Assembly: GCA_035221665.1 (NCBI GenBank)
Contig: JAVHYY010000086.1
Location: forward strand, 372,001 to 436,000
DNA from: Okamejei kenojei
Taxonomy: Eukaryota
Direction of reading: 5' to 3'
Length of the DNA stretch: 64,000 bases
The notes beneath the pieces were generated by a model. It was not told the DNA's origin and made no database searches. It saw nothing but the letters and a program-made list of their open reading frames with translations. The position numbers were made by a program, and so were the translations under genes. Each line of letters begins with the position of its first letter. Within the stretch, counting starts at the first letter, position 1. Positions 18,537 to 53,029 of this stretch are shown here, one piece after another.

Positions 18537-19448
18537 ATTATTTTAAACCACGTTCCCTCGATTTTATTAAGCGTACAGTTAGGGTGAAGGGTCATTCGAG
18601 TGCCTGGAGCAGCTGCTCTCTGAACCTCCTCTGGGTCACAGTGTAAATGAGCGTGTTTGTTCAGGTGTTCAACAGTTGTAGCATAATTCCAGTTTCTTAA
18701 AGTATTGGAAATGGGTTCTTCAAACCCCTGTACACAAATGCAATCGTAATTCGACAGAGAAGGAAATATGCTACAGTTGTTCCCCAGAGCAGCATGAGCT
18801 GCTGGAGATTGCAAGGAGTAAAATTAAGGACCGTCTACGGTTTGCGATCTCGGGGTCCTCACTACTGAGATCGCGGAGTTTTCTACGGACACGACTGGCC
18901 ACTAAAATGCGTCTGACAGTGAGCATGTTCATCAGCATAATCAAACAAAACGGAATAACTGGGGTCAGCAGCTGTTGAGTCCAGGAAATGCTATCCACGA
19001 GGGTAGAATATAAAAGTGATATCGTATTCGGCAACCCCACAGTATACCCTGCTTATTCCTGAGATAATAATTGTACGCAAAATGCCAGGGCGCGTTCGGT
19101 AAACAGAAGAACGCAGATAGGGTCACAATAACCACCACCGCGGTTCTCTCGGTGCAATATCTGGTTCTCAGATTCTGAGTGGAAATGGCCACCAAGCGAT
19201 CAAATGTGAAAGCTACCGTGAGCCAAGCAGAACAGGCTACGGCTGCGGGAGCGAGGAACATAATGGACCTGCACACAGTATAGTGGAAGAGGAATGTGTC
19301 CACCCAGTAAAGGTCGGCAATCCGATGTAATATCACTTCGCAGACGATCACTGAGAGGTCCACCGTTGCCAAGGCCACCAGGTGACGAGTGGTGCATTTA
19401 GAGAGACCAACGTTTCTGCGGGAAGGATCACAATCGCCAGCAAGTTCA
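18537..19448 (-). pseudogene. GPR139/GPR142-like class A GPCR pseudogene (main exon)
   Basis: Acceptor ...CCCCAG then (V)NLLAIVIL, GLSKCTTRHL, FTFDRLVAIS and WTQQLLTPVIPF, homologous to the 36974 and 52122 genes. At least three frameshifts (about 19420, 18985, 18797) and in-frame TAA/TGA codons in the TM7 region. Exon 1 was not found. Confidence 0.88.
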
Positions 19449-22400
19449 CTGGGGTTGTAGAAAAGAGAAAACTGTCGTTCCATATAAGGGAAACGCGATG
19501 CTAATTTGGAGGCGGGCGTCAGTTTTAGGTACGCTTTGCTTACTTGTTCGAAAACAATTGGCCTACATGCAAACCTGCGTGCGTGCTAAGGAGCTGGGCG
19601 TATTAGCTCGCAGCGGTATTCGCAAGCAGCGTGAGCTGTCTACCAGCCACCATTGATGTACCTCAGACTGCATATTGCAGCAACATGCCCGCATCAACAC
19701 CATCGGCCTGGACCTATACCCTTCCCGGGGATAGCCAGGAAACATGGAGTGGAAAGTTAGATTCCCATTTATCCACTGGAGCACTTACCTTTAACACTAT
19801 TCCCATCCAAACCCATTGATAAACTCCCAAGCCCAGAGATCCGTACACCAGCTTAATCAGTGAGGATTAGTGATAACACCCCTTCCACAATAATTCTCAA
19901 CAACGGTGCCGCATAAATATGCCTTCTCCCTCCCCGACGCTTCACCCTGTACACACACGATCTCGACGCAAAATTCGACTGCGACTGCTCCGACAAGTTT
20001 CCAGGTAAGCACTATCTCTACGTCAGTATCAACAAGACGAAGGAGCAAGTTATCGATTTCACGAATATCGGTGGATCGCCGGCACCATCAACGTTGCTGA
20101 AGTGGAAGTGATTGAGGACGTCAAGTTCCTCGGAGTTAATATTACCAACACCTTTGCTCGCTTTCCTAAAATTGTGAAATGGACGGTGATTTCCTTTGGT
20201 TTGAATGTACTCCCTGATACTGCGCTCACGAACAAACATTCCGCCTAACAGTCAATTAATCAACTGAGAAACAGTTTGAAGGGAAGTGTAGTGAATAACA
20301 CGACTAAAGTTAGTGTAAATCGGGTGCACCTTTCGGATCAGCATTTGCTTATTGGTTTGCAACATTTGCAGGGACGGTGTACAGTGGAGTCTGAAGAACG
20401 GTTTCGGCCCGAAACGTTGCCTATTTCCTTCACTCCATAGATGCTGCTGCACCCGCTGAGTTTCTCCAGCATTTTTCTGCACAGTGGAGATTACCTGCAT
20501 GCGATGCGATGGTCGTTGAATAATGTCCACAATGAAAATTAACGAAATTTAAAGCCATAAAAAGGGAGACCATATGGAAACAAATATAGGTGCGGGTAAT
20601 GTAATCGCCCGAGGTATAAGCACATACAGCCTTTATCGCTCAACCTACTTTGGCTGTTATTTCACTTAACAATATTGCAAGGACCATTCTCTACCAGTCC
20701 CAGTAAACGGCAAACGGTGAAATGCATTAAAACCATACAATAACTACATTATCTTCTGGTTATTCCCCAAACCCCATTCCCTGAATACAGCCGAGTATCT
20801 AGTACATGTTGTCACATTATTTTAACTTTATCTTCAACAATACCGCTTCCCAATCAAATGTCGTCACTGTTATCCCACATTAAACCATCAAGTGCATACC
20901 GGGTACTCCAATTGATGCCTGGGTTAGGTAATAATAATATTCAACCGACATGTGCATCCGACCCATTTCTCCTTCAAAGCGACCTCGGAAATGCAGTACA
21001 AAGCTTAGATAAGTCATAGTGGGAGGTTAAACCGCTTGACATTTATAACCCAAGAAGAAGATTAACGAGTTATTGCGATTACCTCCCTGTGAACATTCAT
21101 CACGGATTTTGCTCCCGTGTGATGTCATACGACAACAATCACGAGGGTGGCGTTCACTGCACATGCACCAATTGTGCACGTACAAAACAAACACACTGTA
21201 AAGTAGGATTGCGAATAATATTGCTGAATTTAAATATGTTCCACGGGGTTGCAGCTGCAGAATTGTCCGACAGAAATATTAGTCAACAACGCACGATCCA
21301 AGGAGGAACTGCAGATGCTGCAATGAACGGAAGGTAGACAGAAAAAGCTGGACTAACTCAGCGGGACTGACAGTATCTTTGGAGAGAAGAAATGGGTGGT
21401 GGTTCGGGTCGAGACGTTCTTCACTCTTAAGAAGGGTCTCGAACCGAAACGCCACTCCAGCTCTTTCTGCCTATCGTTTGTTGATTTGAAGAACTTGAAC
21501 TACAGTTCCCAGACACAAACCCAATCGCTTAACAGTCACCCATTATCAATTTTGTCCCAGTTGTTTCCAGTGGGCCCTGTTGCACCGTTAATTAGAACTG
21601 TTCTTGTGAGTGTTCTTATTTACATTCTTCAGGGTGAAAGATCAGGGGGAAACCTATGATCTCTGTTCCTCGACGCACCTACTCTGAAAAGATACTCTGC
21701 ATCTTCCCGATCTTATTTTCTATACTTTGTACGTCTCTATAAGAACAGCCCTCATCCTCCTGCACTCCATGAAATAGAAACCCAGCCTACAGAACCTCTC
21801 CTCATGGCTCACACCCTCTCGTCTAGGAAGTATGCTCATAATGTTTTCTGAACCCTTTCAAGCTTGACAAAATCTTTCCTATAACAAATAATGGTGCCCA
21901 GAACATAACGAAAATATTAGTGTGCAGGAACTGATTGTTGGTCTGCACTGTCCTTGAACTGAACTGTTGGTCTGCGTAATAAAATGTAATCATGCATCCT
22001 TGATTTCCTCTCAGGATTTCGCATTTCGATAAAATACCTCAGTTCAGAATCGCATCGTTCTACTCTTCTCCATTGAAGACTCACGTCTCTCCACTGTTTC
22101 ATTCTATGTCTTCCCTGTCTCACAGAAGTCCCTTCTACGCTTTCCATTGTGCGACGCGTCTCCTTGTAATGTCGTGAGAGGATCAGGGCGCAATACATAA
22201 AGAGTTCCCTGCGAGTCTGTTACCAATTCTGGCATAACTTCTTTGTACTTCGCTTCTGTACTGTGGACCCTTTAACAGAAGTGATTTCAACAACAATTCG
22301 CTACTAGACGCATCATGGCATACCACAGCGGAAGACAAAATACTTGCTGACTGTGTAAATTTTATTGGGGGTTCTCATCCCCTGTCCGTTTACGTACCTA

Positions 22401-23349
22401 CCGTGCCTTCCGATGCCTGCGTTCGATATGCATGTTCACGCACATCTACCAAACATCCATCTAAGTTGTTGCAGTCAGACGTGGTCGTGCCGTCCGAGCT
22501 ACCTTCTAAGGACCATTTGGGACGACGAGCGAGCATACTCTGCCGTACTTGCTTGCTTACCGTCTGTTGTCAGCTCCCAATCTCGATTGTAACCCACTAG
22601 GCTGTTTCAGTCGCTTTTTGGAGGCTTATAATTGTTAATCAACATGATCAATATGTCTGGCTACAGTGATTATCTTACCGTCGTTGTATTGTTAGATTAG
22701 ATTACGGAATTCCGAATGTAGTACAAATGGATGAGTGAATTATCCAGCATTATAATCATAAAACAAATGTATGCTCTTTAATAAAACGAACATAAATACT
22801 TAGTACAGTAAAGAACCAACTGCCTCAAACTCTCCTTCGGTAAGCCAACATCGTTTTTTTTTTCATTGTCTGCTGTGATCAGTCTCTGTTTCAAGAAAAC
22901 AGCCACCCAAGTGGATACAGGAATGCATTCTGTTCACAATAAGCAGTGAATAAACTCTGAGATTGACAGCAAAACCAAGAACATGGTTAACTTAGAAGCA
23001 TCTACATTATTTTTTTTCCTACGGCCTCCTTTCTGTTTCTCACGCGAGAGATACTTTAAGATGTATTTATTCCCTCAATGCACGAAAGTTTCTCTTTTGT
23101 CAAGTAGTGGGTCTCCTAAATGAACGAGTTTAGCGTCAATTTGCTTTCAATGGAGAAGTGGTTTCTCCAGGTATCTCACCGAAAGCAGACAGTCACTACC
23201 GGAAATAGACAGAGTCAAGACACTGTGTAAATTCATCTCTGACTGCGTCTCCTACCCGCACACAAGCTGTGAATTTCGCGGCAGCTGCCCAAGCCGCAAT
23301 GAACGACATCCATCCACGAGATAGCAGCTGTGCGCTTGAAATTCTCGCC

Positions 23350-23388
23350 AGTTATTGTACGAGTATATAGTCCATTCTCATCACTGTG
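23350..23388 (-). promoter_or_regulatory. V recombination signal sequence (23-nt spacer)
   Basis: Minus strand: CACAGTG (23388-23382), 23-nt spacer, ACAATAACT (23358-23350). Confidence 0.92.
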
Positions 23389-24362
23389 ACCTACTGCGCA
23401 GTAATAAACTGCCGTATCAGTCAGACGCAGTCCCGAAATTGTCAATCGATATTTTTTCTCCGACTGCTGGACTGAGTCCGAAAAACGATTTCGAGCGAAT
23501 TCAGCCTTCAGCTCAGAGCCACCGTTAGTGTATCGCCGGACCACAAACTCGGGCTGCCCGCCAGGATACTGGCGATACCAGAATAAGTAATAATTATCCT
23601 TAGAATAGGTACATGTGAAAGTGACGCTTTGACCCTCTGTATATGTGAGCGGACCCTCCTCTTGGGTGACGGAATCTGAGTCAACCAGACCTGGAACACA
23701 TTATAGTGAGTGAAGAATTAATGATACAAAGTAAACACACACGACTTTGGGAAAACGTAGCGACTCTTCGACAACGTTAGGCAACAATAAGAGCACACTA
23801 TTCCTGTCATAGCAAACTGAGTTTGACCGTGTGGAAATCCTACATGAAAATTCACTATTACCAAAACCAATGCCAATGTTATTCATCTCATTCTACGTTG
23901 TATTGCCGCTCTTTACTGGAACATGTTTATATGTTTTGTAATATACTGTCTTGTGCTGCACTTTCATTGATAACATCGTTTTTAATCCCCTGTATCATTT
24001 GTAAACGCATCATACATCTATTACGTGACAATTCTTCAGCGATACGAACGTTTTCTGTGTCTTCTGTAGGATGTGAGTACTTGACCTTTACTTTCCTGAT
24101 GACATTTATCTCAAAATATGCGTTTCGTCAAACTATGTTATGAAACTATCAGTTCACATTTCTTAATGGGGTTGCGGACAATACACGATGCCATACTTCT
24201 TTAACAAAGGAATTACCAAACCGTTCGATGTTGCTTTGAAATTAACTCCTTGGATCTTCATGCAGTCAGGCACTTGCCCTGGAAATGCAACAGTTTAGAG
24301 AAATCGCTCTTCTTACCGGCAACGAATGTAACCCACGCCGCCGCATGTAGCAATAGTCGCAT
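23389..24362 (-). CDS. TCR alpha/delta V gene segment, apparently functional: leader exon 24362-24317, V exon 23690-23389
   Basis: Leader MRLLLHAAAWVTFVA ends at a phase-1 GTAAGA; 626-nt intron; acceptor GTTCCAG. The V exon GLVDSDSVTQEEGPLTYTEGQSVTFTCTYSKDNYYLFWYRQYPGGQPEF...DTAVYYCAVG is open throughout. Confidence 0.93.
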
Positions 24363-24454
24363 GTTTATGAACTTGGTTGCAATAAATCAGGGTGTCTGAG
24401 ATACCCGCAGAGCGTCCGTCTGACAGCACTGCGTGCACTGACTGACACTTGCAC

Positions 24455-24462
24455 GACGTCAT
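24455..24462 (-). promoter_or_regulatory. CRE-like element in the V promoter
   Basis: Minus strand ATGACGTC(G), a near match to TGACGTCA, about 95 nt upstream of the leader ATG. CRE-like motifs are known in TCR V promoters. Confidence 0.4.
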
Positions 24463-26319
24463 TTCCTACAGAGAGCACACCAAATATAGCGAGCGATGCG
24501 GGGTTCGTCGTCACTCTCATAAGTAAAGAAAGGTGTTTATTGCAGACAACTCAGCCCTCAACGTGGATGTGTTTTGATACATGAAAATGAAAGAGAAGAC
24601 AATAGTTTGCTTGCTATCCTACCGATAAATCAATGGTAATACTCCTACGAATCACTGCATTACACCAGAGTCGAATTAACCTCTACTCACTGCAGGTCAA
24701 GTTCCAGATGACATGGGTGAGGACGTCAACAATGAATAACCGGGTAGACAAATTGATTTTCACGTCACACGAGAAATACCATGATGAATCCTTCAATGCC
24801 CCCTGAGAGAGTAAGGTATTGGATTCCCACTATCCGGCCACACTGTGGACAAACCAAATTAGTAGTGTTAAAAGGGGTCTAACTATGGTTCTACTTATAG
24901 TAAAAGAGGGAAGAATTACTCCTATTTGTAAGAATGAGTCTTTATCACGGTTTCCGCTTTAGTAAAAGCATTTAGTTTTAGTTTAGTTTAGTGATACTGC
25001 GCGGAAACATGCCCATCGGACCACCGAACCCACGCCGACCAACGATCCCCGCAGACAAACACTATCCTACAAACGCTTTGGACAATTTACATTTGCAGCA
25101 AGCCAATTAACGCAAAATCCGGTACGTCTTTGGAGTGTGGGAGGAAATCGAAGATCTCGGAGAAACCCCCCACGCAGCTCACGGCGTCCGTACGGAGAGC
25201 ACACTCTCAGTGAGAAATTCGGAGGCATTTAGTGTGAACAGCTGACACTTTATATGCTTCAACCCTTGTCAAATGATTTTTTTTCCAGCGTTCTGTTCTG
25301 ATATATTTACAAGACTTCTCTGCTCAGATGTGGGTTATGGACTACGTCACCCGGGCGGAGCGAACTGCGTTTGCCTACTGCGGGAAAAACATCGACAAGA
25401 AGATGTGCTGATCACTGGAACTACTAGGCGTTTCGGCAAATTGATGTCCGAGTTGTGTGCATATCATTGTACCTAACACACGCCGCAACAGATCAGGGCA
25501 AAGATGCGTTTTTCTTTTTGACGTAGCAGCAGTTGGAGTTCTTGGGACCCCGATATGAGTTTCGAGATTTTAACATTGTGAAAATTCAACACCATGATTA
25601 AAAAATTCAACAACATAAATATTCAACTATAGTATCAGGTAGCATATTGTGGCATTTAGACCATTTATTACAACTGATTTAAATTATTCTCAATTCGTTC
25701 TGCAAAGTGTCACGGTTGCAATGTAATCGAACGTAACACAATTCAATGTCCGATAACACAAATATATAACTTTATAACCATATAAACAAATAACCATAAT
25801 ATGCATTATATTATTCTAAAAAATAAACAATCCAACAAAAAATGAAACATACAAACGGATGTCTAATGTCTCTGCCATCCCATCACAATGGCATTTATAG
25901 TAATATTGTATGTACCATCTAAAATGATAATGTGTAAAATGCTTTAAAGCACAGATAATATGGTCACATTTACATTTCCGGTTTTGAATGATGTCCTCGG
26001 CGATTATAACTAAATTGAAGCTGACTTCATGTGGCATCGTGTTGATTTCTGCGGATTCGATGCTGAAACACACTGAGTTGAGAGACAGAGATGCCTGTAC
26101 AGTGGGGAGCGACACCGCATCTCTTTGTGAGATGCAGCTGAACCACGAATTGAATCAAAGCGCGCAGCGGCGGGGTCATGACCAAAGAGGGCTGAAGGAT
26201 ATAAAACAACATTAAAAAAAACATGTTCATCAAAGCGTCTCTAGTTAACTCAAAATAAGTTCCGGAATTGAACTAAAAACGGTTAATACGAAAAGTGTTC
26301 AAAGTGACAAACCGTTTCA

Positions 26320-27890
26320 ACTTTTACACTCCCCTTATCTGCTCAATAACCTTATCCCCTCTGACCGTACAGCCCTCTGGACACTCTGCAACCCTGATAT
26401 AATAATCAATCCCGCCGACAAGAATTATGCCGTGGTAATCTGGCGTGTTGAGCTCTACCGGGCAGACGCTAGGAGACAACTCTCAGACACCTCTTCCCTC
26501 TTGGAGCATGATCCCACAGACGAGCACCAGGCCTTAATTTCACACACCAATTCTGATTTCAGCACTTCTGGCGGTCTGCTTTTCACAGCCTCCAAACTTA
26601 TCGTTCCCAGCCCGCAGTGCCCGGTTTTGCCTGCTCACCAAAATCCACAAACAGAACTGCCCTGGCAGACCCATTGTTTCTGCCTGCTCCTGTCCCAGGA
26701 GAGTGATTTCCACGTACTTCAATTCCATCCTATCACGCCTCGTCCAGTCTCTCTCCAGACCTACGTCCAAGATACCTCACATGGATTTTGTCTCCTTAAT
26801 TACTTCCGCTTTCCGAGCCCCCACTCCCTCGTCTTTAGGATGGACGTTCAGTCACTCTACACGTCCACTTCCCACCAGGAATGGCTCAAAGCCCTCCGTT
26901 TCTTCCTCGACCGCAGAACATTCAAATGTCCCTCTACTAACACTACTTGGGTAGTGGAGCGGTCCCCACCCTCAGCAACTTCTCATTTGATTCATCCCAC
27001 ACCCTCCAAGTCCAATGCGTCGCTATGCGAACCAGCGTGGGTCCCAGCTGTATCTGCCTCTTTGTAGTATATTTTGACCAATCCCTGATCCAGGCGCACC
27101 CTGGCCATATCCCGGACTCTATCTCCTTTACATAGATGACTTCATCGGTGCTACCTCTGGCAAGCATGCAGAGCTCAAAGACGTCATCAACTTCACCACA
27201 AATTTTCATGCTGCACTCAAATCTACTTGGACCATCTTCGACATCTCCATCTCCTTTCTTGATCTCACAGGCGTCATCACAGGAAATTGACTATTGACTA
27301 ACGTCGATTACCATCGTGAGGGAGGACCGCAGTGTGGGCAGGAGAAGAACACTGGGGGACCCGGCGCAGGGGAGCCGCCGTGGGGGAGGTTGGGGAAGAA
27401 CAATGGACAATAGGGTGCGGGGTCAAATTACAATGGGGATCTGGCGTGGGGGGGTCTGCTGAGGGGGGCGGGGTGGGGACAAAACCCAGAAAACGGCATG
27501 CTTTGTAACTTTGTAACTCCACCCCTTACTCCTAATTCCTCCGCCTACTTTTTCGCCCAAGATTAAGTGTTCCATACTAGGACATCCGAGATGTCCTCAT
27601 TCTTCTCGTGGATGAGGCCATCATTCCTGCCTCCTCTGTACCACGCAGCTCCACCCTTGGTCCTCGTCCCGCTATTCACAACAGAGTCCGCCTAGTCCTT
27701 ATTTCCCACCCCATCAGCCATGGCATACAACATATAATCTACCGCAATGTCGCCACCTCCAACAGGTTCCTACCACCAGCCACATTTTCCCTGCCCCATC
27801 CCTTTCCGCGTTCCAGACACCGTTCCTTCCACAACACCCTAATTAACTCCTCCTTTACCATCCAACCCACCGCTCACCTCCCTCCCCAGG
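26320..27890 (+). mobile_element. Penelope-like element RT fragment, decayed and interrupted
   Basis: PADK...VVIW, MDVQSLYTS, AMRTSVGPS and YIDD-like remnants; interrupted by an unrelated insert at about 27310-27520. Confidence 0.75.
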
Positions 27891-28624
27891 TAACTCTTGG
27901 ATCATGGAACACTTTATTGTCATTCAGACCTTACGGTCTGAACGTAATTTCGTTGCCTGCAAACATACATATTGTAAATAACAAAACACATAATAAACAC
28001 ATATTTAACATCCACCACAGTGAGTTCACCAGACCTCCTCACTGTGATCGAAGGCAAACATATTATGCCTTTGTCTCTTCCCTTATTTTTCTTCCTCTTC
28101 CTCTGCGCTGAGGCGACCCAGGCTCTGATGTTGTGACCGCACCTGGTGACATAAATAAGTCCCGCGGCTGAACCGCGCTCCGCGAACGGGCCGGTTCAAC
28201 TCCGCGGCCCGGGGCGGTCGAAGCTGCCGAAGCTGCCGCCCTCCAGTCCAGCGGACGCAGCTGTTGCCGCGGGAGCTCCGGAAAAACAGGTCACCAACCT
28301 GTGACCTGCGAGCTCCCGACGATGTCGTCCACTGGGCCCGCGGCCGGGCCTCCGAAGTCGCCGCCGCCGCCACCGCCACCGGAAAGCCGCCACAGCTCCG
28401 AGTCGGGCCGCCGGAACGCCCGAACCCGCCACAGCCCTGAAGTCGGCCAGCCTCACGCTGGTAAGTCCTGGCTGGCTCTGCCTCCGGAGCCTCGAGGTCG
28501 GTCGCAGTTGGAGGCTGTCAGCTCCGCCATTAGGCCTCAGCGCAGACGGAGACGGAGACGGGGGATACGACAAGAAAAAGTCGCGTCCACCCCCCACCCC
28601 CCCCAAGAAAGAGACTAAAACTTT

Positions 28625-30100
28625 TCTCCCCTGCAACCGCAGAACTTTCCCTGCAACCGTAGAATATGCAATACCTTTCGCTATACCTCCTCCCTCGACT
28701 CTGTCCGGGAACGCGACAGTTACATCGATGACTGCTTTGGTGTCACTCCTGCACCACACACAACTGACTGACTTCATTCATTTCACCACCAACTTCCATC
28801 CGGCACTCAAATACACTTGGGACCATTTCCGACACTTCCCTACCATTCCTTGACCTCACCATCTCTATTGCAGGTGATACACTCCTGACCGACATCCACT
28901 ACAAACCCACTGATTCCCACAGCTAACTGGACTACTCTTCCTCCCACCCTGCTTCCTGTAAGGACTCCATCCCCTATTCCCAATTCCTTCGTCTACGCCG
29001 CATCTGCTCCCAGGATGAGGTGTTTCACACCAGGTCATCACAAATGGCCTCATTCTTCAGAGAACGGGGATTCCCCTCCCCCACTATTGATGAGGCTCGC
29101 ACCAGGGTCTCCTCCATACCCCGCAACACTGCCCTCTCTCCCCATTCCCCCACTCGCAAACAGGGCAGAGTCCCCCTGGTCCTCACCTTTCACCCCACCA
29201 GCCGGCAAATACAACAGATAGTCCTCCGCCAGTTTCGCCACCTCCAACGTGACCCCTCCACCCGCCACATCTTCCTATCTCCCCGCTGTCTGCCTTCCGC
29301 AAGACCGCTCCCTCCGCGACTCCCTTGTCAATTCTTCCCTCCCCTCCCGCTCTGCTCCTTCCCGGGCACTTTCCCTTGCAACCGCAAAGAAATGCAACAC
29401 TTGTCCCTTCACCTCCCCCCTCCACTCCTTTCAGGGACCCAAGCAGTCCTTCCAGGTCCGACAGAGGTTCACCTGCACCTCCTCCAACTCATCTACTGCA
29501 TCCGCTGCTCCAGATGCCAGATGATCTATATCGGTGAGACCAAGCGGAGGCTTGGCGATCGTTTCGCCGAACACCTCCGCTCGGTCCGCAATAACCAACC
29601 CTACCTCCCGGTCGCTCAGCACTTCAACTCCCCTCCCATTCCGTATCCGACCTCTCGGTCCTGGGCCTCCTCCATGGCCAGAGTGAGCAACACCGCAAGT
29701 TGGAGGAACAGCACCTCATATTCCGCTTGGGGAGTTTGCATCCTTTGAGCTTGAACATTGAATTTTCTCAATTCTGTTAACCCTGCTGTCTCCTCCCCCT
29801 CCCACCTCTCCCCAGCCCTCGGGGCCCTGGCATTCCCTCTGTCTCTGTCTACCTCCCCCACCCTAGTCGCATTAGCTTCTCATTTTCACACCACAAACAG
29901 CTTACAATGGCTTGTTCCCTTTATCATCGATACGTTTTTGCATATCTTTCCTTCATTGTTCTTTATCTCTCAATCACCGTCTATATCTCTCGTTTCCCTG
30001 ATCCCTGACCAGTCTGAAGAAGGGTCTCGACCCGAAACGTCGCCTATTTCCTTCGCTCCTTAGATGCTGCTGCACCCGCTGAGTTTCTCCAGCATTTTGT
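28625..30100 (+). mobile_element. Penelope-like element 3' part (RT C-terminus and GIY-YIG endonuclease) with terminal repeat
   Basis: YIDD..., FLDLTISI, YKPTDSH, IPYSQFLRLRRICS and IYCIRCSRCQMIYIGETKRRLGDRFAEH (GIY-YIG). The 3' terminal segment contains CTGAAGAAGGGTCTCGACCCGAAAC. Confidence 0.88.
30014..30041 (+). ncRNA. Minimal hammerhead-ribozyme-like core (Penelope-associated)
   Basis: CUGAAGA, stem II GGGUC-UC-GACCC, GAAAC, then a GUC triplet. A second copy lies at 30644-30671. Stem I pairing is weak. Confidence 0.55.
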
Positions 30101-30104
30101 GTAA

Positions 30105-33839: not shown

Positions 33840-36800
33840 ATGCGTTGGAATCAAATAAGGACGGTGGAATTGATTTATTATCCAATACTTGCTGCAGTGG
33901 GGGTTTTCGGTAGGTCTTCATGCGCACAATGTGTCGGTTGAACAGTGTGCTAAACCGTACGTGTTTTGATCGTGGAAGGAACAGAGAAAAGTAGTGAAAT
34001 TAATTGTTGGTGACAGAGGAGGAAGGTGGATGCATGGAGGGGAAATTGAGTTATCGGTCGATGTCGATGAGTGTTCCTCACCAGTGCAGCATTATTATTT
34101 TATATTCCTTTTTAACACTGAATTTACTCTTACATCACACGAGTGGAAGTGCCAAGAAGAGCAGAATAATTAATAATATGTTCGTCAAAAACGAACAAAT
34201 AATAAAATGGCGATATATTTTCATTCTTACATTGGTCATGTATGCTGTTCTTTAGAGAGCCAGTGGTTAGACAGAACAAGCATCAGATAAAGGATGGCGA
34301 GAGCGGTGGGAGTGGGGGGTTGTGTGCAGCGGTAGAAAAGCATTCGTAAGGAAAACGACACTAAGATGGCATGGAACTAGTGCGGGAGAGCGACGGAGTA
34401 GGGGTGACTGACGGACTGAATGTCGCTTTTACGTCAGGCTCAGAGGGCACAGCAGTAACTCAACCTGTGCTTTCTGCGTGTTTTTCCTTTGTGTCCATTC
34501 CTGACTTAGAAATAATTGAATTTGTTATTTCTCGTTTGCCATTGTTTCCAGTCTTCTGCCCTTTTTGTGCGGACTAGTTCTTAAATGAGCGGTGGACCGA
34601 AACGTACTTTCTTCCCTGCGCTGTACGAAACTAGTGCAACAAATGCACAGAGTTAATTTAGAAAAGGAATTTTTACAATTCGGTCTAAAGAACATTACAG
34701 CGATTTAGCCGAGCAACATAATACGTTGGTGTCGGATACGGAAGGTAGATTTGATTTTAAAATTTCTGCTGCAATTGGAGCTCTTGTTAGGTCTTAGTGA
34801 GCACACATTCTGGATGAATAGTATACTCTACCCTGCAATGTTTTTTTTTAACATCGAAGGTGCAGACAAACATATAGGGAAATAAATTATTGGGGATAGG
34901 AGAGGAGGATACATACCCGGAAAGGAAAAGAGTTAATGTTCGATACCGATGATTATTCCTCCGCATTGGGGCAGATCGTTTTCAATTTATTTCTAGCAAT
35001 GCATTTATTCTCACGCCACGTACGCGTCGGCGCTATGTAAAGAAGAATAACACATTTATTTTGGAGAAACCGTCAACTAAAACGTAGCGCTTTAGTTACA
35101 TTCTTATGATGGTGGTGCGTCCTATTGACTAGGCAGCAAATGCTCAAGAATAGCATTGGACATTTACAATTCGAGATGTATTCGAACATGAAGCATTACT
35201 GAGATGGCATAAGCATAGTGCACGACCTATGTAGGAACCAAGAAAGAATCGGATTCGCGCGACATATTGAATGTTCCTGGATTTGTTTTTCCTCAATCGA
35301 GTCCGACGAGGATTTGCACGCAATGATGCCTCGATGTTGAAAGCAGGCAACTGGTAAGCAACACGATTGCACTTATTTGGTTTAGTGCTACCGGACTGTG
35401 TCTCTTGCACGTGCCTAAACCCAATGCCCTAATGCGTCATCATGAATTTAATCTCACGGTCCAGAGGTACAGAGCGGACATGATACAGTGTCGATACTTT
35501 AGGTGACATATGTCAATCAGTTAAGTTGTTAATTAAGTAAACATTCTCTAAACTGCATTCATTTCCCTCTGGTCAATGGTTACGGCATTCGCACCATGCA
35601 CCTGCGTCAGAGTAGTCAATGTTGCACAATCTGCTGGGACATTCTGATATTTTCTGATTTCATTCAAGGTTGCATCTGCAACAGTTCAGTTTTGTCTTAA
35701 CATCTCACGATTAATAAAGCTGATGCCCCAGCGCGCCTGAGACGCGAATTCAATCGTGCCCTCACGACCAGTATGTGTGCTCTTCCCATATTTTCGCCGC
35801 GAAGGCGTGGTATTCGTTTGCATGTTGCGATTTCACTCACATAACCAACATGTGCCGGTTTGTTGACGCCATGGCCTAAGTCAGTAGGAGTGCGCCAAAT
35901 CAGAGTGTTTCAATGGTACTTTATTCCCGTAGAAACAGAGACACATAGAAACATAGAACATAGGTTTGCCTGCCTTCTCCCAATATCCCTTGATTCCACT
36001 AGCCCCTAGAGCTGTACCTAACTCCCTCTTAAACCCATCCAGTGACTTGGCATCCACTACCCTCTGTGGCAGGGAATTCCACAAATTCACAACTCCCTGA
36101 GTGAAAACGTGTTTTTCTCATCTCAGTCTCAAATGGCCTTCCCTTTCTTCTAAGACTGTGGCCCTTGGTTCTGGACTCGCCCAACATTGGGAACATTTTT
36201 CCTGCATCTAGCTTGCCAGTCCTTTCATCATTGTATATGTTTCTATAATAACCCATACTCCCTCTACACTCTAGTGAATAGAAGCCAAGTTTCTTCAAAC
36301 TTTCCTCATATGACAGTCCCGCCATCCCATGGATCAATCTCGTGAACCTACGCAGCCCTGCATCAATCACAAGGAAGTTCTTCCTCAAATTATGAGAAAA
36401 CTGCACACAATACTCCAGATGTGGTCTTACCAGAGCCCAATACAACTGCAGAAGAACCTCTTTACTCCTATACTGAAATCCTCTTGTATGAAGGCCAGCA
36501 TTCCATTAGCTTTCTTCACTGCCTGCTGTAACAGCACGCCAACATTCAGCGACTGGTGGAAACGGACATTCAGGTCTCGCTGCACCTCCCACTTACCTAA
36601 CCAAACTTCGTTAATATAATAATCTGCCTCGTGTTTTTCCGCCAAAGTGGATAACCTCACATGTATCTATATTATATCCTGATTGAGCCTCATCTGGTTG
36701 TATAATGTGTCCACGACTCCTGTTCACAGTCTCCATATCGCTTCTCTGCATGTAATTTCGTCGATAAAATCATTGGTGAATTTGGAATGGGCAGTTGACC

Positions 36801-37914
36801 CATGTCCATGTAAACAAATCAACGGTTGCACTGTAACGACCTCACTATTTGCTATCATAATCAATGGAAGTCCGGATTAACCCATACAGGCTTCATTCAT
36901 GAAAATCGTTGAATGCGATCTGTTATTTATCAGGCGATAAGCACATGTATGTTTTGTTTTCATTCTCTTTCAGTCAACGTCGTGGCGATCGTGATTCTGT
37001 GTCGAGGAAAGTGTGGTCTATCCAAATGCATCACTCGTTATCTACTGGCCATGTCAACGGCGGACCTCTCCGTTATTATGTGCAATGTAATTTTGTATCG
37101 CTTGGCCGAAATTTATTGGCGGCAATCTTTCTTAGTCAACACTCATGTGTGCAGAATCGTGCACATCCTGGCTCCCGCGGCTGTAGACTGCTCGGTTTGG
37201 TTCACGGCCGCGTTTACATTTGACCGCTTTGTGGCAATTGCCACGCAGCATCTAAAAGCAAAATATTGCACCGAGAGAACCGCGATGTTGATTATAGTCA
37301 CACTGAGCGTAGGTTTCTCTCTAAAGAACATTTCTTGGGCCTTCGCCCATATTCCATACGACATTCCAAATGTGCCGGATCGAGGGTGCCGGATAGCATC
37401 ACAATTCTATACCCGGGCACCATGGATTGCATTTTCTTGGACTGAACAGTTGTTAACTCCAGTTATCCCATTTTGTTTGATTTTGTTGTTCAACGCGCTC
37501 ACTATCAGACGCGTTTTAGTGGCTAGCCTCGTCCGTAGGAATCTCCGGGATCTCGGTCATGGAGAGAAGGGAAAGGACGAAGAGACGAGAAACCGCAGAC
37601 GGTCCGTCGTTTTACTAATTGCAATCTCCATGAGTTTTATCCTGCTCTGGTCCGCAACTGTCACACATTTTGTTAGCTTTCGAATTGTGAGCGCTTTCAA
37701 ACGTAGGAGTATCAGTAATCCGTTCCCAATATTTGAACAAATTGGGATCATGCTTCAGCTGCTGAGCGCCTGCACAAACACGGCCATTTACACCGTGACT
37801 CAAAGGAAATTCAGATTAGAGATATTCCTTGCGCTCATGTACCTCTGCAGTCTCATGAGGAAATTGGCGAAGTCGAGAGAAATGCAGAGGAAAATAGACA
37901 TTATTATTTTGTAA
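33840..37914 (+). CDS. Orphan class A GPCR, GPR139/GPR142-like, 336 aa: exon 1 33840-33909, exon 2 36974-37914
   Basis: Exon 1 MRWNQIRTVELIYYPILAAVGVF ends at a phase-1 GTAGGT and joins acceptor TTTCAG to give (V)NVVAIVIL. Seven hydrophobic segments, ADL in TM2, FDRF in TM3, disulfide Cys in TM3 and ECL2, CTNTAIY and helix-8 RKFR. The spliced CDS is 1011 nt and open. Confidence 0.88.
35930..36675 (-). mobile_element. CR1 LINE 3' fragment inside the GPCR intron
   Basis: YWALVRPHLEYCVQF and NLWNSLPQRVV motifs; CATAGAAA tail at about 35935-35962. Confidence 0.85.
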
Positions 37915-39679: not shown

Positions 39680-42600
39680 TAATTAACACTATTAGGGTAT
39701 AAAATGCCATGTGAGATGCGGTTAGGTGGGGAGTTGGATGGGTTTGGCGGGGGTTGGTGGGAGAGATTTCCAACTGTGGCCCGCTATATATGCGACTTAA
39801 CCCAAGAGACCTGCATGTCCGTGGCAATACGGAGAGGCCCAGGGAGCCGTTGGTGAGAGGGGGGAGTACCTGGAGCTGTGAGTATAAAACACATCGCGGG
39901 GCTTGCTTTCACAGAGGCCCAGAGCCGTTGGTGAGAGGGGGGAGTACCTGGAGCTGTGAGTACAACCAAATCGGCAACGTTCCATCTCACTTCCAGAGAA
40001 GGAATCTGGTGAAGCCTCAGATTGGTGGAAGAGGACCCGAGGAAGCAGCTGATTGGGTGCAACCCCGAGTTTACAATTTTACATTTCTGCCTTCTGGGAG
40101 TTAGGGATTCTGGGAGTTAGGCATTCTGGGAGTTAGGGACTCTGGGAGTTAGGGATTCTGGGAGTTAGGGATTCTGGGAGTTAGGGACTCTGGGAGTTAG
40201 GGACTCTGGGAGTTAGGGATTCTGGGAGTTAGGGATTCTGGGAGTTAGGGATTCTGGGAGTTAAGGACTCAGTATTTAGTAGTAAAGTTTAAAGGATATG
40301 TTTTTATGTTTTTTTTTAATATTTAATACAGAGTAATTTGGGAGTAAGGTATGGCAGTGGAGATTGGCCCCGTGGTTTGTTCAGCCTGCAACATGTGGGA
40401 GATCAGGGAGATGGTCGGTGTCCCTGGTGACTACAATTGCAGGAAGTGTGTCCAGCTGCAGCTCCTGGCAGACCGCATTGAACGATTGGAACTGCGGCTG
40501 GATTCATACTGGAGCATCCACGATGCGGAGAGAGTCGTGGATAGCACGTACAGTGAGTTGGTCACACCACAGGCAAAAGGTAAGAGGACCAAAAGGGAAC
40601 GGGTGGCCAATAGCCAGCAAAGCAGTAGGCAGTTAGTGCAGGAGTCCCCTGCGGTCATCTCCCTCCTAAAACAGGTATACCATTTTGGATACTGTTGAGG
40701 GGGATGGCTCATCAGGGGAATGCAGCAGCAGCAAGTTCATGGCAACATGGGTGGCTTCTGCAGCACATGAGGGGGGAAAAAAGAGGGGAAGGGCAATAGT
40801 AATAGGGGATTCAATTGTCAGGGGAATAGATAGGCGTTACTGCGGCCGCAAACGAGACTCCAGGATGGTATGTTGCCTCCCTGGTGCAAAGGTCAGGGAT
40901 GTCACTGAACGGCTGCAGAACATTCTGGAGGGGGAGGGTGAACAGCCAGTTGTCGTGGTACATGTTGGCACCAACGATATAGGTAAAAAAAGGGATGAGG
41001 TCCTACAAGGTGAATTTAGGGGAGCTAGGAGATAAACTTAAAAGTAGGACCTCAAAGGTAGTAATCTCCGGATTACTACCAGTACCACGGGCCAGTCAGA
41101 GTAGAAATAGGAGGATATTGCAAATGAATACGTGGCTTGAAAAGTGGTGCAAGGGGGAGGGATTCAAATTTTTAGGGCACTGGGACCAGTTCTGAGGGAG
41201 GTGGGACCGGTACAAACAGGACGGTTTGCACCTGGAATGGAATGGAACCAATGTTCTTGGGGAGTGTTTGCTAGTGCTGTCGGGGAGGATTTAAACTAAT
41301 GTGGCAGGGGGATGGGTACAAGAGCAGAGAGGCAGGTGGGTGTAAAATGAGGGTAGAAGCAATAGGTAGCAAGGTGAAAAGTAAAAGTGGCAGGCAGACA
41401 AAACCAGGGCAAAAAAATCAAAAAGGGCCACTTTTCAGCAAAATTGTATAAGGGGTAAGTGCGTTGTAAAGACAAGCCTGAAGGCTTTGTGTCTCAATGC
41501 AAGGAGTATTCGTAATAAGGTGGACGAGTTGAACGTGCAGATAGATATTAATGATTATGATATAGTTGGGATCACGGAGACATGGCTCCAGGGTGACGTA
41601 GGCTGGGACCTGAACATCCAGGGATATTCAATATTCAGGAGGGATAGAGAGGAAGGAAAAGGAGGTGGAGTAGCGTTGCTGGTTAGGGAGGAGATTAACG
41701 CAATGGAAAGGAAGGACATTAGCTTGGAGGATGTGGAATCGGCATGGGTAGAGCTACAAAACACTAAGGGGCAGAAAACGCTGGTGGGTGTTGTGTACAG
41801 GCCACCTAACAGTAGCAGTGAAGTTGGGGATGGTATCAAACATGAAATTAGAAATGCGTGCGACAAAGGCAAAACAGTTATAATGGGTGACTTCAATCTA
41901 CATATAGATTGGGTGAATCAAATTGGCAGGGGTGCTGAGGAAGAGGATTTTTGGAATGTATGAGGGATAGTTATCTAAATCAACATGTAGAGGAACCAAC
42001 GAGAGAGCAGGCTATTTTAGACTGGGTTTTGAGTAATGAGGAAGGGGTAGTTAGCCGTCTTGTTGTACGTGCCCCCTTGGGCAAGAGTGACCATAATATG
42101 GTTGAGTTCATTAGGATGGAGAGTGACATTGTTAATCAGAAACAATGGTTCTGAACTTAAGAAAGGTAACTTTGAGGGTATGAGACGTGAATTGGCCAAA
42201 GATTGACTGGCAATTAATTCTAAAAGGGTTGACGGTGGATATACAATGGAACACATTTAAAGACTGCATGGATGAACTACAAAAATTGTTCATCCCAGTT
42301 TGGCAAAAGAATAAATCGGGGAAGGTAGTGCATCCGTGGATAACAAGGGAAATCAGGGATAGTATCAAAGCAAAGGATGATGCGTACAAAGTAGCCAGAA
42401 AAAGCAGCATACCAGAGGACTGGGAGAAATTCAGAGACCAGCAGAGGAGGACAAAGGGCTTAATTAGGAAAGGAAAAATAGATTATGAAAGAAAACTGGC
42501 AGGGAACATAAAAACTGACTGCAAAAGTTTTTATAGATATGTGAAGAGAAAGAGGTTAGTTAAAACAAATGTAGGTACCTTGCAGTCAGAAACAGGTGAG

Positions 42601-44368
42601 TTGATCATGGGGAACAAGGATATGGCGGACCAATTGAATAACTACTTTGGTTCCATATTCACTAAGGAAGACATAAATAATCTGCCGGAAATAGCAGGGG
42701 ACTGTGGGTCAAAGGAGGAATTGAGTGAAATCCAGGTCAGTCGGGAAGTGGTGTTGGGTAAATTGAATAGATTAAAGGCCGATAAATCCCCAGGGCCAGA
42801 TAGGCTGCATCCCAGAGTACTTAAGGAAGTAGCTCAGGAAATAGTGGATGCATTAGTGATAATCTTTCAAAACTCTTTAGATTCTGGAGTAGTTCCTGAC
42901 GATTGGCGGGTAGCAAATGTAACCCCTCTTTTTAAGAAGGGAGGGAGAGAGAAAAACGGGAAATTACAGACCAGTTAGTCTAACATCGGTAGTGGGAAAA
43001 CTGCTAGAGTCAGTTATTAAAGATGGGATAGCAGCACATTTGGAAAGTGGTGAAATCATTGGACAAAGTCAGCTTGGATTTACGAAAGGTAAATCATGTC
43101 TGACGAATCTTGTGGAATTTTTCGAGGATGTAACTAGTAGCGTGGATAAGGGAGAACCAGTGGATGTGGTATATCTGGACTTCCAGAAGGCTTTCGACAA
43201 GGTCCCACATAAGAGATTAGTATACAAACTTAAAGCATACGGTATTAGGGGTTCAGTATTGATGTGGATAGAGAACTGGCTGGCAAACAGGAAGCAAAGA
43301 GTAGGAGTAAACGGTTCCTTTTCACAATGGCAGGCAGTGACTAGTGGGGTACCGCAGGGCTCAGTGCTGGGGACCACAGCTTTTTACAATATATATTAAT
43401 GACCTGGATGAGGGAATTGAAGGCAATATCTCCAAGTTTGCGGATGACACTAAGCTGGGGGGCAGTGTTTAGCTGTGAGGAGGATGCTAGGAGACTGCAA
43501 GGTGACTTGGATAGGCTGGGTGAGTGGGCAAATGTTTGGCAGATGCAGTATAATGTGGATAAATGTGAGGTTATCCACTTTGGTGGCAAAAACAGGAAAG
43601 CAGACTATTATTTAAATGGTGGCCGATTAGGAAAAGGGGAGATGCAGCGAGACCTGGGTGTCATGGTACACCAGTCATTGAAAGTAGGCATGCAGGTGCA
43701 GCAGGCAGTGAAAAAAGCGAATGGTATGTTAGCTTTCATAGCAAAATGGATTTGAGTACAGGAGCAGGGAGGTTCTACTTCAGTTGTACAGGGTCTTGGT
43801 GAGACCACACCTGGAGTATTGCGTACAGTTTTGGTCTCCAAATCTGAGGAAGGACATTATTGCCATAGCGGGAGTGCAGAGAAGGTTCACCAGACTGATT
43901 CCTGGGATGTCAGGACTGTCTTATGAAGAAATACTGGATAGACTCGGTTTATACTCTCTGGAATTTAGGAGAATGAGAGGGGATCTTATAGAAACTTACA
44001 AAATTCTTAAGGGGTTGACAGGCTAGATGCAGGAAGATTGTTCCCGATGTTGGGGAAGTCCAGGACAAGGGGTCACAACTTAAGGATAAGGGGGAAATCC
44101 TTTAAGACCGAGATGAGAAAGACTTTTTTCACACAGAGAGTGGTGAGTCTCTGGAACTCTCTGCCACAGAGGGTAGTTGAGGCCAGTTCATTGGCTATAT
44201 TTAAGAGTGAGTTGGATGTGGCACTTGTGGCTAAGGGGATCAGAGGGTATGGAGAGAAGGCAGGTACGGGATACTGAGTTGGATGATCAGCCATGATCAT
44301 ATTGAATGGCGGTGCAGGCTCGAAGGGCTGAATGGCCTACTCCTGCACCTAATTTCTATGTTTCTATG
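39680..44368 (+). mobile_element. Near full-length CR1 LINE: repeat-containing 5'UTR, ORF1 (Zn finger plus SGNH esterase), ORF2 (APE plus RT), (TTTCTATG)2 tail
   Basis: ORF1: CSACNMW...CRKC, IGDSIVRG, HVGTND. ORF2: CLNARSI, GITETW, YRPPN, MGDFN, SDHN, KSPGPD, YLDFQKAFDKVPH, GVPQGSVLG, FADD. Several frameshifts. The 5' boundary is approximate. Confidence 0.93.
40093..40268 (+). repeat. Minisatellite, 11 x 16 bp TCTGGGAGTTAGGGA(T/C), in the CR1 5'UTR
   Basis: Eleven contiguous units counted directly; nine contain TTAGGG. Confidence 0.95.
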
Positions 44369-44900
44369 TAATACTGCAGCTCTGCATTCCGACTTGCCAT
44401 CATCAAGGCTACTTAAAACTTTTGCAATTATGAATTGTTTATTGATCCCCCATGTATTCGCATGTATTTAGAAACTTTAATTCTGACACCTCCTTCGAAC
44501 CCCAGTTTTTGAAACATTTTAGTTTTGGATTTATTACGCGGCTTGGAAACGGATATGTGGAAAGGGACAAGGTGCAGGTTGGAAAACTCTGCCTTAACAA
44601 TTGAAAACACAAATGTACAGCGAGCTGCTACTGAACATATTTCAAAATGGGATGTCACGGACAATAGAACATAGAATAGTGGAGCTCATGAATTGCACAT
44701 TTCTGATAGAGAGAGGCAGAGGAGATGCAGGGAGCATGGTTCCGCAACGCGCCGCGTCTAGAACCAAAGGTGTGAGGCACTGGATTAAGGGGCAATATAC
44801 TGAAATCAAACATATACGTTTATACTGAGGTGTTATCTCTAACACGAACAAACTTGGAGGACCAAATCTGAACATATTGACAGAAGGATTGTTTCCATAT

Positions 44901-46442
44901 CATAGAAACATAGAAACATAGAAAATAGGTGCAGAAGTAGGCCATTCGGCCCTTCGAGCCTGCACCGCCATTCAATATGATAATGGCTGATCATCCAACT
45001 CAGTATCCTGTACCTGCCTTCTCTCCATACCCCCAGATCCCTTTAGCCACAAGGGCCACATCTAACTCCCGCTTAAATGTAGCCAATGAACTGGCCTCAA
45101 CTACTTCCTGTGGCAGAGAATTCGAGAGACTCACCACTCTCTGCGTGAAAAATGTTTTCCTCATCTGGGTCCTAAAGGAATTCCCCCTTATCCTTAGAAT
45201 GTGACCCCCTGGTTATGGACCTCCGCAACACCGAGAACAATCTTCCTGCATCTAGCCTGTCCAACCCCTTAAGAATGTTGTAAGTTTCTATAAGATCGCC
45301 CCTCAATCTTCTAAATTCTAGCGAGTACAAGCCGAGTCTATCCAGTCTTTCCTCATATGAAAGTCTTGACATCCCAGGAATCAGTCTGGTGAACCTTCTC
45401 TGTACCCCCTCTATGGCAAGACTGTATTTCCTCAGATTTGGAGACCAAAACTGTACGAAATACACCTGGTGTGGTCTCACCAAAACCCTGTACAACTACA
45501 GTAGAACCTCCCGGCTCATATACTCACATCCTTTCGCTATGAATTCTAACATGCCACTTGCTTTCTTCACTGCCTGCTGCACCTGCAAGCCTACTTTCAA
45601 TGATTGGTGTACCATGACACCTAGGTCTCGTTGCATCTCCCCTTTTCCTAATCTGCCAACATTCAGATAATAGTCTACCCTCCTGTCTTTGCCACAAAAG
45701 TAGATAACCTCACATGTATCCACATTATACTGCATCTCCCTTGCATTTGCCCACTCACCCAGCCTATCCAAGTCACCTCGCAGCCTCCTATCATCCTCCT
45801 CACACCTAACTGCACCACCCCGCTTTGTGTCATCTGCAAACTTGGAGATGTTACATTCAATTCCCTCGTCCAAATCATTAATATATATTGTAAATTGCTG
45901 GGGTTCCGGCACTGAGCCTTGCGGTACCCCACTAGTCACTGCCTGCCATTCTGAATAGGCCCCGTTTACTCCTACCCTTTGCTTCCTGTCTGCCAGCCAG
46001 TTCTCTATCCACATCAATACTGAACCCCCAATACCGTGTGCTTTAAGTTTGTATACGAATCTGTTATGTGGGACCTTGTCGAAAGCCTTCTGAAAGCTTA
46101 GATATAAAACATCTACTGGTTCTCCTTATCCACTCTACTAGTTACATCCTCGAAAAATTCTATAAGATTCGTCAGACATGAATTACCTTTCGTAAATCCA
46201 TGCTGACTTTGTCCAATGATTTCACCACTTTCCAAATGTGCTGCTAACCAATCTTCAATAACTGATCTAGCAATTTCCCCATTACCGATGTTAGACCAAC
46301 TGGTCTGTAATTCCCCGTTTTATCTCTCCCTCCTTTTTTTAAATGTGGGGTTACATTAGCTACCCTCCAATCCTCAGGAACTACTCCAGAATCTAAGGAG
46401 TTTTGAAAAATTATCACTAATGCATCCACTATTTCTGTGGCT
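44901..46442 (-). mobile_element. 5'-truncated CR1 LINE of the same subfamily as 39680-44368
   Basis: (CATAGAAA)3 tail at 44901; RT segments DALVIIFQNSLDSGVVPEDW, GVPQGSV and KFADDTK. Confidence 0.92.
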
Positions 46443-47895: not shown

Positions 47896-47899
47896 TGGT

Positions 47900-50308: not shown

Positions 50309-53029
50309 ATGCGTTGGCATACGATACGGAACGTAGAATCGTTGTATTATCCAATTCTTGCTGCAATTGGGGTTTTGGGTAAGTCTTCGTGAGCACATTT
50401 GGTCGAATGAACAACATGCTTTACCATGCGAGTTTTGATCGTAGGTGTAGAAGAGAGATACAAAAGGGAAAGAAAATGTTGGCGATGGGAGAGCAAGATA
50501 TATCAGCGCAGATGGAAATCAGGTTTCGACGTCGATTATTGTTCCTCTGTGTTATGGTATGATCACCTTCAATTTCTTTCCAACGGTAAAATTATTCTCG
50601 ATTCGCATGAATCGACGAAATGTGTAGGAATGAACTGCAGATGCTGATGTAAACCGAAGACAGATACTTCAAACGAGTACATCAGTGCGGCAGGCAGGAT
50701 CTCTGGATGTGCATCTTCTGAAGAAGGATCTCCACCGGAAACCTCACCCTTTCCTTCTTTGCGGAGATGCTGCCTGTCCCACTGAGTTACATCAACATGT
50801 CGTGTCTACCTTCGCATGTGGAGTACTTTATTTCTTGTTTGCATTTATTTATTCTTCACGCAGCCAATGACTAGAAACAGTAAAAACAAGAAAGTGGAGT
50901 TGTGGAGTTGATGAGCTGTATAATAATATTCGGAAACGACATCGAAACGGCTTGTATGAAATCGGACCGGGGGAGGCAAGAACATCTCTGCAAACGTTTT
51001 TCTCAACCGAACCCCCACCACGTCAGTTCCTGAATTGGCGCCTGGCAGTTTAAATCCAGCGAATGGCAGACAAGTAAATGCTGCTCATTTGATTTAACGT
51101 TGCTGGATTTCAGTGGTCTCAGCACTTGATTAAACCTCAATAGCAAATAAACAATGGATAATAGGTGCAGGAATATGCCATTCGGCCCTTCAAGCCAGCA
51201 CCGCCTTTCAATGTGATCATGGCTAATCATCCCCAATCAGTACCCCGTTCCTGCCTTCTCCCCTTTGACTCCGGTATCTGTAAAAGCCCTATCTAGCTCT
51301 CACTTGAAGGTATCCAGGGAACCGGCCTCCACCTCCCTCTGAGCCATACAAATTCCACAGACCTCCTGTCTTAATGCATCGCCAAAATTTAATCTAATTG
51401 CCTTGAGTTACCGAGCGGACTCGACACAAGGCCGAAAGGTTCGATGACTTTTGGGAAGCAGTTCATACGTTATTTAAAGAAACAATCTGTACTTGTTTTA
51501 ATTGGCATCTGGTCAATGATTACGGCAAGCACTCCCTGAAACTGCTTCGGCACAGTCAATGTTGCACGACGTGCCGGCATGTTCTGAGATGTTTTTTACT
51601 ATATTTCAGGTTACGCAAGCCAGGCGTAATTAAACTGTTGTCACACCGCACCAGAGGCGCGGAATCAAACGTAACCTCATGTGTTGTCTTTGTGTATTGC
51701 TAATTCGATCTCGTCATGAAAGCTTGCGTTTAGTTTGCGTGATGCAGGTGCAGCCTCATCACAACAAAGTGCTCGGCGAATTGGCCCAAGTGAACACAGA
51801 GATCCCTGTAGAACTGGTTCCACGCGGTGGAAAACCCGGTTTTCAGTCGCTTTGTTGGTTCCTCGAATTTCAATTCTGCGATGATGTAATTGGTGAAATT
51901 CAGCTATGCAAGTGTCCGCTGTCGAAACAAACGACGTCATCGAAGCAATGGCCCGATCTTTACTTAACTGTGTGACGGAACGGAAACCTGAAAGTACCGC
52001 CCAGGCTTCACCAAGTGGAATAATTGAATGTGTTTGGCCATTTACCAGTCAATAACTGCATATTTATTGTTATATACAGTATATCGTATCGTATACATAT
52101 ATTGTTCTTATTCTGTTTTAGTCAACCTAGTGGCGCTTGTGATTCTGTCCCGAGGAAAGTGCGGTCTGTCCAAATGCATCACTCGTTACCTGATGGCCAT
52201 GGCAGCAGCGGACCTCTCCGTTATAATCTGCAATGTGATGTTGTATCGGATGGCCGAAACGTATTGGCGGGACACTTTCTTACTCAACTTTTATGCCTGT
52301 AGATTCGTGCACTTCCTGGCTCCCGCGGCTATAGACTGTTCAGTTTGGTTCACTGTCGCATTTACTTTTGATCGTTTTGTGGCCATTTCCACGCAGCATC
52401 TAAAGTCAAAATATTGCACCAAGAGATCCGCGACGGTGATTATAGTCACACTGAGCGCAGGCTTCTGCTTAAAGAACATTCCCTGGGCATTCGCCTATGT
52501 TCCGTACAAGAGACCAAACGTGCCAGATTGGGGTTGCCTGTTAGCATCACAATTCTATACCTGGGCACCATGGATTGCGTTTTCTTGGACTGAACAGTTG
52601 CTCACCCCAGTTGTGCCATTCTGCTTGATTTTGCTGTTCAACGCGCTTACTATCAGACGCATTTTACTAGCGAGTCGGATCCGCAGGATGCTCCGTGATC
52701 CGTGCAACGGAGAGAAAGGGAAGGACGAGGAGATGAGTAACCGTAGGCGGTCCATCGTTTTACTAATTTCAATCTCCATGAGTTTTATTCTGCTCTGGGC
52801 CGCAACTGTCGTACATTTTGTTATCTTTCTCATTATCGCGGCTTTCAAACGTAGGAGTGACATTAATCCACTTTCAACTTTTCAACAAACTGCGATCATG
52901 CTTCAGCTGCTGAGTTCCTGCACGAACACTGCCATTTATACCGTGACGCAAAGGAAGTTCAGCCAAGAGCTACTCCGAGGGCTGAACTACCCCTTTACAC
53001 TGATTAGAAAATTGCTGAAACAGAGATAA
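50309..53029 (+). CDS. Orphan class A GPCR, GPR139/GPR142-like, 325 aa: exon 1 50309-50378, exon 2 52122-53029
   Basis: Exon 1 MRWHTIRNVESLYYPILAAIGVL ends at a phase-1 GTAAGT; acceptor TTTTAG gives (V)NLVALVIL. Same motifs as the 33840 paralogue (FDRF, CTNTAIY). The spliced CDS is 978 nt and open. Confidence 0.88.

Follow-up and report, generated by a model that had tools for sequence, protein, structure and literature searches.

Class A receptor genes apparently related to GPR139 are interleaved with T-cell receptor V segments in the skate Okamejei kenojei

Our findings point to a vertebrate expansion of a known kind of receptor that is real and apparently undescribed, part of which stands among antigen-receptor segments, where its relation to V(D)J rearrangement is most likely that of an ordinary bystander. 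The window, by which we mean the whole 64,000-nucleotide stretch analysed here, is C988:372,001-436,000, a portion of an unplaced 532-kb TCRα/δ V-region contig in an assembly of 2.76 Gb. It holds two intact GPCR genes (G2 and G3) and one GPCR pseudogene (G1) among TCR V segments and a V-D-J cassette of NAR-TCR type that spans 59014-60324 on the minus strand, an arrangement proposed in an initial annotation made from the letters alone and borne out by Pfam searches of the open reading frames, tblastn and V/RSS scans (Table 1). The account that we consider probable is that these genes encode GPR139-related receptors, likely of a chemosensory-type repertoire, which were copied along with TCR V segments and are bystanders of V(D)J cutting and inversion.

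Table 1. Antigen-receptor and GPCR features of the window (position 1 is its first letter).
Feature	Position	Strand	Remarks and evidence
V1, TCR alpha/delta V exon	2730..3020	+	RSS at 3023, 22-base spacer; Pfam V-set, V profile, RSS scan
G1 GPCR pseudogene exon 2	18553..19470, start approximate	-	frameshifts, three premature stops; tblastn in three frames
G1 exon 1, start codon to GT donor	20900..20966, approximate	-	blastn with C20 paralogue and translation
V2, TCR alpha/delta V exon	23392..23676	-	23-RSS at 23388; RSS scan, Pfam, V profile
G2 exon 1, N-terminus and first half of TM1	33840..33909	+	phase-1 GT donor; exon-1 profile
G2 exon 2, open up to stop codon	36974..37914	+	Pfam, AlphaFold2 model
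G3 exon 1	50309..50378	+	phase-1 GT donor; exon-1 profile
G3 exon 2, open up to stop codon	52122..53029	+	Pfam
TCR V adjoining NAR cassette on downstream side	57210..57505	-	23-RSS at 57199, extra Cys in CDR1
NAR-TCR-type J with 23-RSS	59014..59072	-	RSS scan
NAR-TCR-type D	59470..59484	-	3' 12-RSS at 59469
NAR-TCR-type V exon and leader exon (~60282-60324)	59868..60324	-	RSS at 59865; Pfam

Decayed retroelement frames, recognized from their translations, occupy positions 8300-12900, 26250-29750 and 40300-46100 of the window; we take them to be recombinase- and reverse-transcriptase-like, Penelope-like and LINE-like. Within the cassette, the NAR-type J (59014-59072) carries Asp at the Phe/Trp position of the FGXG motif, and the 5' RSS of the NAR-type D has a poor nonamer (59470-59500). 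The V at 57210-57505, whose position relative to the cassette is matched in four cassettes of a second contig (C241), is presumably the supporting V of the NAR-TCR. The label draws in part on the general description given in the available portion of PMC3457774.

The receptor genes belong to class A, their open 7tm_1 frames at 36913-37914 and 52028-53029 (Pfam PF00001, E 4e-17 and 1e-17) scoring 62.9 and 64.5 bits against a curated cut-off of 30.5. These frames, as first annotated, are real, but the gene models had missed exon 1: G2 and G3 are two-exon genes with GT-AG phase-1 introns, and the ATG-led starts seen on a single-exon reading are intronic. The missing first exons were found with an N-terminal profile built from 35 homologues. 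G1 extends over approximately 18553-20966. An AlphaFold2 model of G2 exon 2 (pLDDT 78.9) contains the end of TM1, TM2-TM7 and H8; with a TM-score of ~0.7 to peptide receptors, and with peptide and chemokine receptors nearest in fold among the matches listed, the prediction is of an ordinary peptide-receptor-like bundle. Identity as olfactory receptors was rejected: 7tm_1 was matched alone, without the olfactory 7tm_4, and the coding exons are two. Olfactory receptors have a single coding exon.

Among solved structures, human GPR139 is the one that the family profile matches best (E 2e-18, 69 bits; runner-up 47 bits), a comparison confined to PDB chains; as the best profile match of this set, it suggests that the skate family is related to GPR139. 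GPR139 and GPR142 are orphan class A receptors responding to L-Trp and L-Phe. A two-exon gene structure is common to GPR139 (as given in the available part of PMC7318219) and the skate family, relatives of which carry the automatic database name 'probable GPR139'. Orthology was rejected. In the Trp/Phe pocket, formed by E3.32, F3.33, H5.43, W6.48, R6.51 and N7.38, the family consensus reads A, A, E, W, T and V, which keeps one residue in six (W6.48 only); phmmer gave no match of human GPR139 to the single protein at E 0.001; and GPR139 is a single gene with 70% identity between human and zebrafish, whereas the skate family has hundreds of copies (936 copies of its motif). GPR139 is likewise absent among the fold-search matches listed. 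Cys occupies two positions in the skate family, the top of TM3 and ECL2, that are Asp and Asn in the aligned GPR139.

Outside chondrichthyans, the closest relatives come from salamanders, coelacanth, teleosts and amphioxus, and those of bony vertebrates are low in copy number, with 1-5 members per cluster in the clusters looked up. The salamander receptors P0347 and P0400 are the nearest named relatives outside chondrichthyans and offer a tractable low-copy model for a ligand search. GPR210A/B is described, in the available part of Rinne et al. 2019 (PMC6504862), as an orphan close to GPR139/142 that coelacanth, gar and certain fishes possess, and the coelacanth and teleost relatives of the skate family resemble it by that description; the word 'shark' occurs 0 times in that paper. 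By feature similarity, an alignment-free lead, the family neighbours invertebrate GPR139/srw-type expansions (srw-family, rotifer and echinoderm clusters at 0.95-0.97), from which it differs as an independent, vertebrate expansion. Nematode srw receptors are chemosensory.

The family is large. A tight TM3 motif has 936 exact matches genome-wide (0 for the reversed control), clustered on many scaffolds. Since on C988 this motif recovers 12 of 19 loci, and on the analysed part of C241 5 of 11 (17/30 together), we arrive at a rough estimate of ~1,600 family loci, pseudogenes and redundant contigs included; five of ten loci sampled from the motif list are clearly open, which suggests several hundred intact genes. 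A protein search returned 1,273 matches, the named ones in the best 120 being all chondrichthyan and nearly all 'probable GPR139'. On the ten largest scaffolds (C1-C10), for which the list of motif matches is exhaustive, 57 of 96 matches are located no farther than 5 Mb from a scaffold end, against 7.7% expected, which points to subtelomeric duplication, and 10 of 21 clusters on these scaffolds fall within the same distance. The link to antigen-receptor loci anticipated at the outset is partial: the matches are clustered and the window subfamily has 19 of its 57 on TCR contigs, but most of the family is elsewhere. A TCR-specific family was rejected, the majority of the 936 matches falling outside TCR contigs.

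The subfamily of the window appears to be old and to have spread from the TCR locus. In a FastTree of 118 sequences, which contains no GPR139 or GPR142 and from which two five-stop pseudogenes and three short fragments were dropped, G2, G3 and the close relatives of G1 group with six shark genera and a number of batoids in a single clade (support 0.985), whose sister is a sequence from a chimaera (support 0.97). The foreign sequences were picked as best matches, so the tree shows age and not linkage. Linkage in other species was sought by protein search; one search was empty, and another contained no named elasmobranch V in its best 120 matches. A weak hint comes from the catshark: the accession numbers of its closest proteins, XP_038644117-119, come soon after that of UrIg2, XP_038644097 (TCRA/D scaffold), yet these proteins lie on other scaffolds. 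Of the 57 matches to a window-clade motif, 16 are on V-bearing contigs, 3 on contigs with copies near-identical to those of C988, and the remaining 38 in satellite arrays on C3, C5 and C20 that nest within the TCR-locus clade. The C3 (34.9-35.7 Mb) and C20 (2.7-3.5 Mb) arrays carry TCR V orphons, namely broken V2 copies beside the GPCRs, and the C3 array additionally carries NAR-V pieces; with the nesting, this makes a spread outward from the TCR locus likely. Among the 13 NAR-V loci on TCR contigs, all ten cassettes with a checkable 5' flank have a GPCR head-to-head upstream, a layout that is one duplicated unit. In the history that we favour, an ancestral copy of the subfamily would have lain inside the antigen-receptor complex before the shark-ray split, GPCR genes were likely duplicated together with adjacent TCR V and NAR-TCR segments, and the TCR region would later have seeded the satellite arrays on other chromosomes.

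The wider TCR locus confirms a birth-and-death family of class A receptors interleaved with TCR V: C988 has 69 V loci, of which 53 are on the plus strand and 16 on the minus strand, together with 19 GPCR loci, six with a full open exon 2, and 13/19 GPCR loci there and 6/11 on C241 are broken or partial. The initial annotation had taken D and J segments to lie on the left. This was not borne out: no D, J or C besides the NAR cassettes was found in the whole 532 kb of C988, and all 12 matches to a J pattern fall at 82-188 kb of C241, minus strand. On C241, where the V/GPCR survey covered 1-90 kb and 190-526 kb, a segment of Dδ type at about 258.6 kb is followed by 16 V loci (15 minus) interleaved with 11 GPCR loci from 318 kb. 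Five GPCR copies with open exon 2, at 337-405 kb, stand there between Dδ/Jα and minus-strand V with RSS. The intervening GPCRs would be deleted whenever a V upstream of them rearranges. Between Dδ and the first GPCR are two IgH-like V, one inverted (C241:281,703-281,975, minus; 297,259-297,534, plus). A candidate Cα exon at C241:72.9-73.4 kb has weak Ig/TCR C matches (best E 0.009); the TCR Cα Pfam profile gave no match, and Cδ was not located. A second TCR-resident GPCR subgroup (C241:337-405 kb, C988:517 kb) carries Arg in place of the conserved W6.48, a change that may alter activation.

How the window relates to these segments depends on linkage. The window contig is unplaced, so linkage in cis to D/J is an assumption; no join of C988 to C241 was found, the left end of C241 matching repeats only, and the ends of C241 and of a third contig, C176, match C988 as paralogues (up to 95%) and not as overlaps. 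C176 and C988 share long colinear V-region copies at ~85-94% DNA identity, which reflect either segmental duplication on a large scale or haplotypes that diverge strongly, and the C176 counterpart of G2 is frameshifted. Because 53 of 69 V on C988 point right, and because blocks homologous to the J-facing segments of C241 lie on its plus strand, D/J are more likely to the right of the window than to the left, and the leftward position taken as given was rejected. The V at 57200 therefore more likely rearranges by inversion; of the proposal that it excises G1-G3, what stands is the deletional geometry, seen for the copies on C241. With D/J on the right and in cis, rearrangement of any one of the 51 plus-strand V to the left of G1, 22 of them full and open, would remove G1-G3; with D/J on the left and in cis, five minus-strand V right of G3, one of them the NAR V, could do so.

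Median dN/dS among open copies is 0.27-0.35, against 0.63-0.96 for pairs that include a five-stop pseudogene, and intact copies are under purifying selection. The broken and partial loci counted above might suggest that the GPCRs are carried along neutrally by segmental duplication or transposons and do not work as receptors, but the dN/dS of ~0.3 in open copies, the intact splice sites and the retention of the subfamily across sharks and rays make this highly improbable. In all three groups compared, change is faster on the outer face than on the inner: 0.59 vs 0.36 in nine window-clade pairs (Fisher p=5e-4), 0.94 vs 0.28 in six dispersed pairs (p=5e-10) and 0.24 vs 0.16 in one further group, the five tree-excluded copies and three more broken or partial ones having been omitted. 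Pooled dN/dS stays at or below 1, so positive selection is not demonstrated. The faster outer face would fit receptors of differing ligands, as the account we favour proposes; relaxed constraint would equally predict it. The family is large and clustered, has many pseudogenes and changes faster in its ligand-facing parts, as a chemosensory repertoire would, and it is from this sequence pattern that we propose the chemosensory type. A search for expression in three sequence sets, probably DNA contigs, gave mostly repeat matches and two short pieces ~87-90% alike on G3 exon 2, which speak neither for nor against transcription.

The same receptors might instead form an immune repertoire, in which leukocytes or barrier cells would use them as sensors of microbial or damage peptides, clustering would follow from shared regulation, and V(D)J excision would play no role. 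Several placements speak for it. On C15, eight family loci lie within 140 kb around TCR V, IgNAR and PSMB5 (57.40-57.54 Mb, no assembly gap); carrying PSMB5, C15 matches the antigen-receptor complex of PMC12227049, whose available main text contains neither 'GPR' nor 'G protein'. On C10, family members are found between IgH-type C exons, and a two-exon member with open exon 2 (C30:1,639,113-1,641,857) is 136 kb from PSMB8 in the MHC; it forms a deep branch with a zebra shark protein (support 0.924). The predicted fold, nearest peptide and chemokine receptors, and the apparently long residence of the subfamily at the TCR locus would also agree. We nevertheless regard this repertoire as unlikely, for only 7 of the 96 matches on C1-C10 are within 1 Mb of a listed C1-set exon (150 of 269 candidates scored), no family motif match lies near the Ig clusters of C2 (161-164 Mb) and C3 (7.4 Mb), and the concentration near scaffold ends points to subtelomeric duplication.

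It had also been suggested that GPCR dosage varies clonally with V choice. In its functional form, TCR-embedded copies would be expressed in T cells and V choice would set which receptors are kept, coupling dosage to antigen-receptor identity; the five open copies between Dδ/Jα and minus-strand V on C241, and the GPCR head-to-head with every checkable NAR-V cassette, lend it something. The head-to-head layout is, however, a single duplicated unit whose four copies on C241 are all broken, the 38 window-clade matches outside the locus are beyond the reach of deletion, and bystander genes are common in TRB, IGH and IGL (available part of PMC8945572). With at least 57 close paralogues in the genome, the claim was not upheld, and we think such coupling very unlikely. 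Under the bystander account that we prefer, a T-cell clone would lose some GPCR copies through RAG-mediated deletion or have them flipped through inversion, and the loss of a few would presumably have no effect, much as with the trypsinogen genes that flank the Vβ cluster within Tcrb and are silent in T cells (available part of PMC10772921).

The suggestion of an undescribed repertoire is plausible: the expansion is seemingly unpublished, and its role, chemosensory or immune, is read from sequence pattern. A literature search, with subscription papers outside its scope, found no paper on this family expansion, and the available parts of PMC8455134, PMC6504862, PMC10620051 and bioRxiv 2024.05.23.595469 make no mention of it. 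Cartilaginous fishes are credited with a 'relative paucity' of GPCRs (PMC8455134, in part), and the catshark with only 2 canonical and 6 OR-like genes (bioRxiv 2024.05.23.595469, in part). We put forward, tentatively and with more doubt than confidence, that the family is an overlooked fifth vertebrate chemoreceptor-type repertoire. It would comprise several hundred intact GPR139-related receptors and have its anchor in the antigen-receptor complex and MHC, where tetrapods have ORs, and one ancient subfamily would have been amplified together with TCR V and NAR-TCR cassettes. If true, a selected receptor family under the label 'probable GPR139' would revise the GPCR-poor picture of these animals. 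The family can be tested as a candidate for chemosensation or immune sensing in sharks, and its copies mark the duplication units from which the shark TCRα/δ V region was built.

Excision by itself carries little weight, because bystander loss is well known. According to the available parts of PMC10772921, PMC8945572 and PMC3457774, trypsinogens reside in TRB, ADAM6 in IGH and PRAME/ZNF280 in IGL, and ORs flank TRA/TRD; the likeness to the TRB, IGH and IGL bystanders is that of non-immune genes between V and D/J that are lost by deletional rearrangement. The skate locus differs from these known systems in that its bystanders are another GPCR family, interleaved with V gene by gene, and in that the GPCR is duplicated as part of the NAR-TCR unit and has probably given rise to arrays on other chromosomes.
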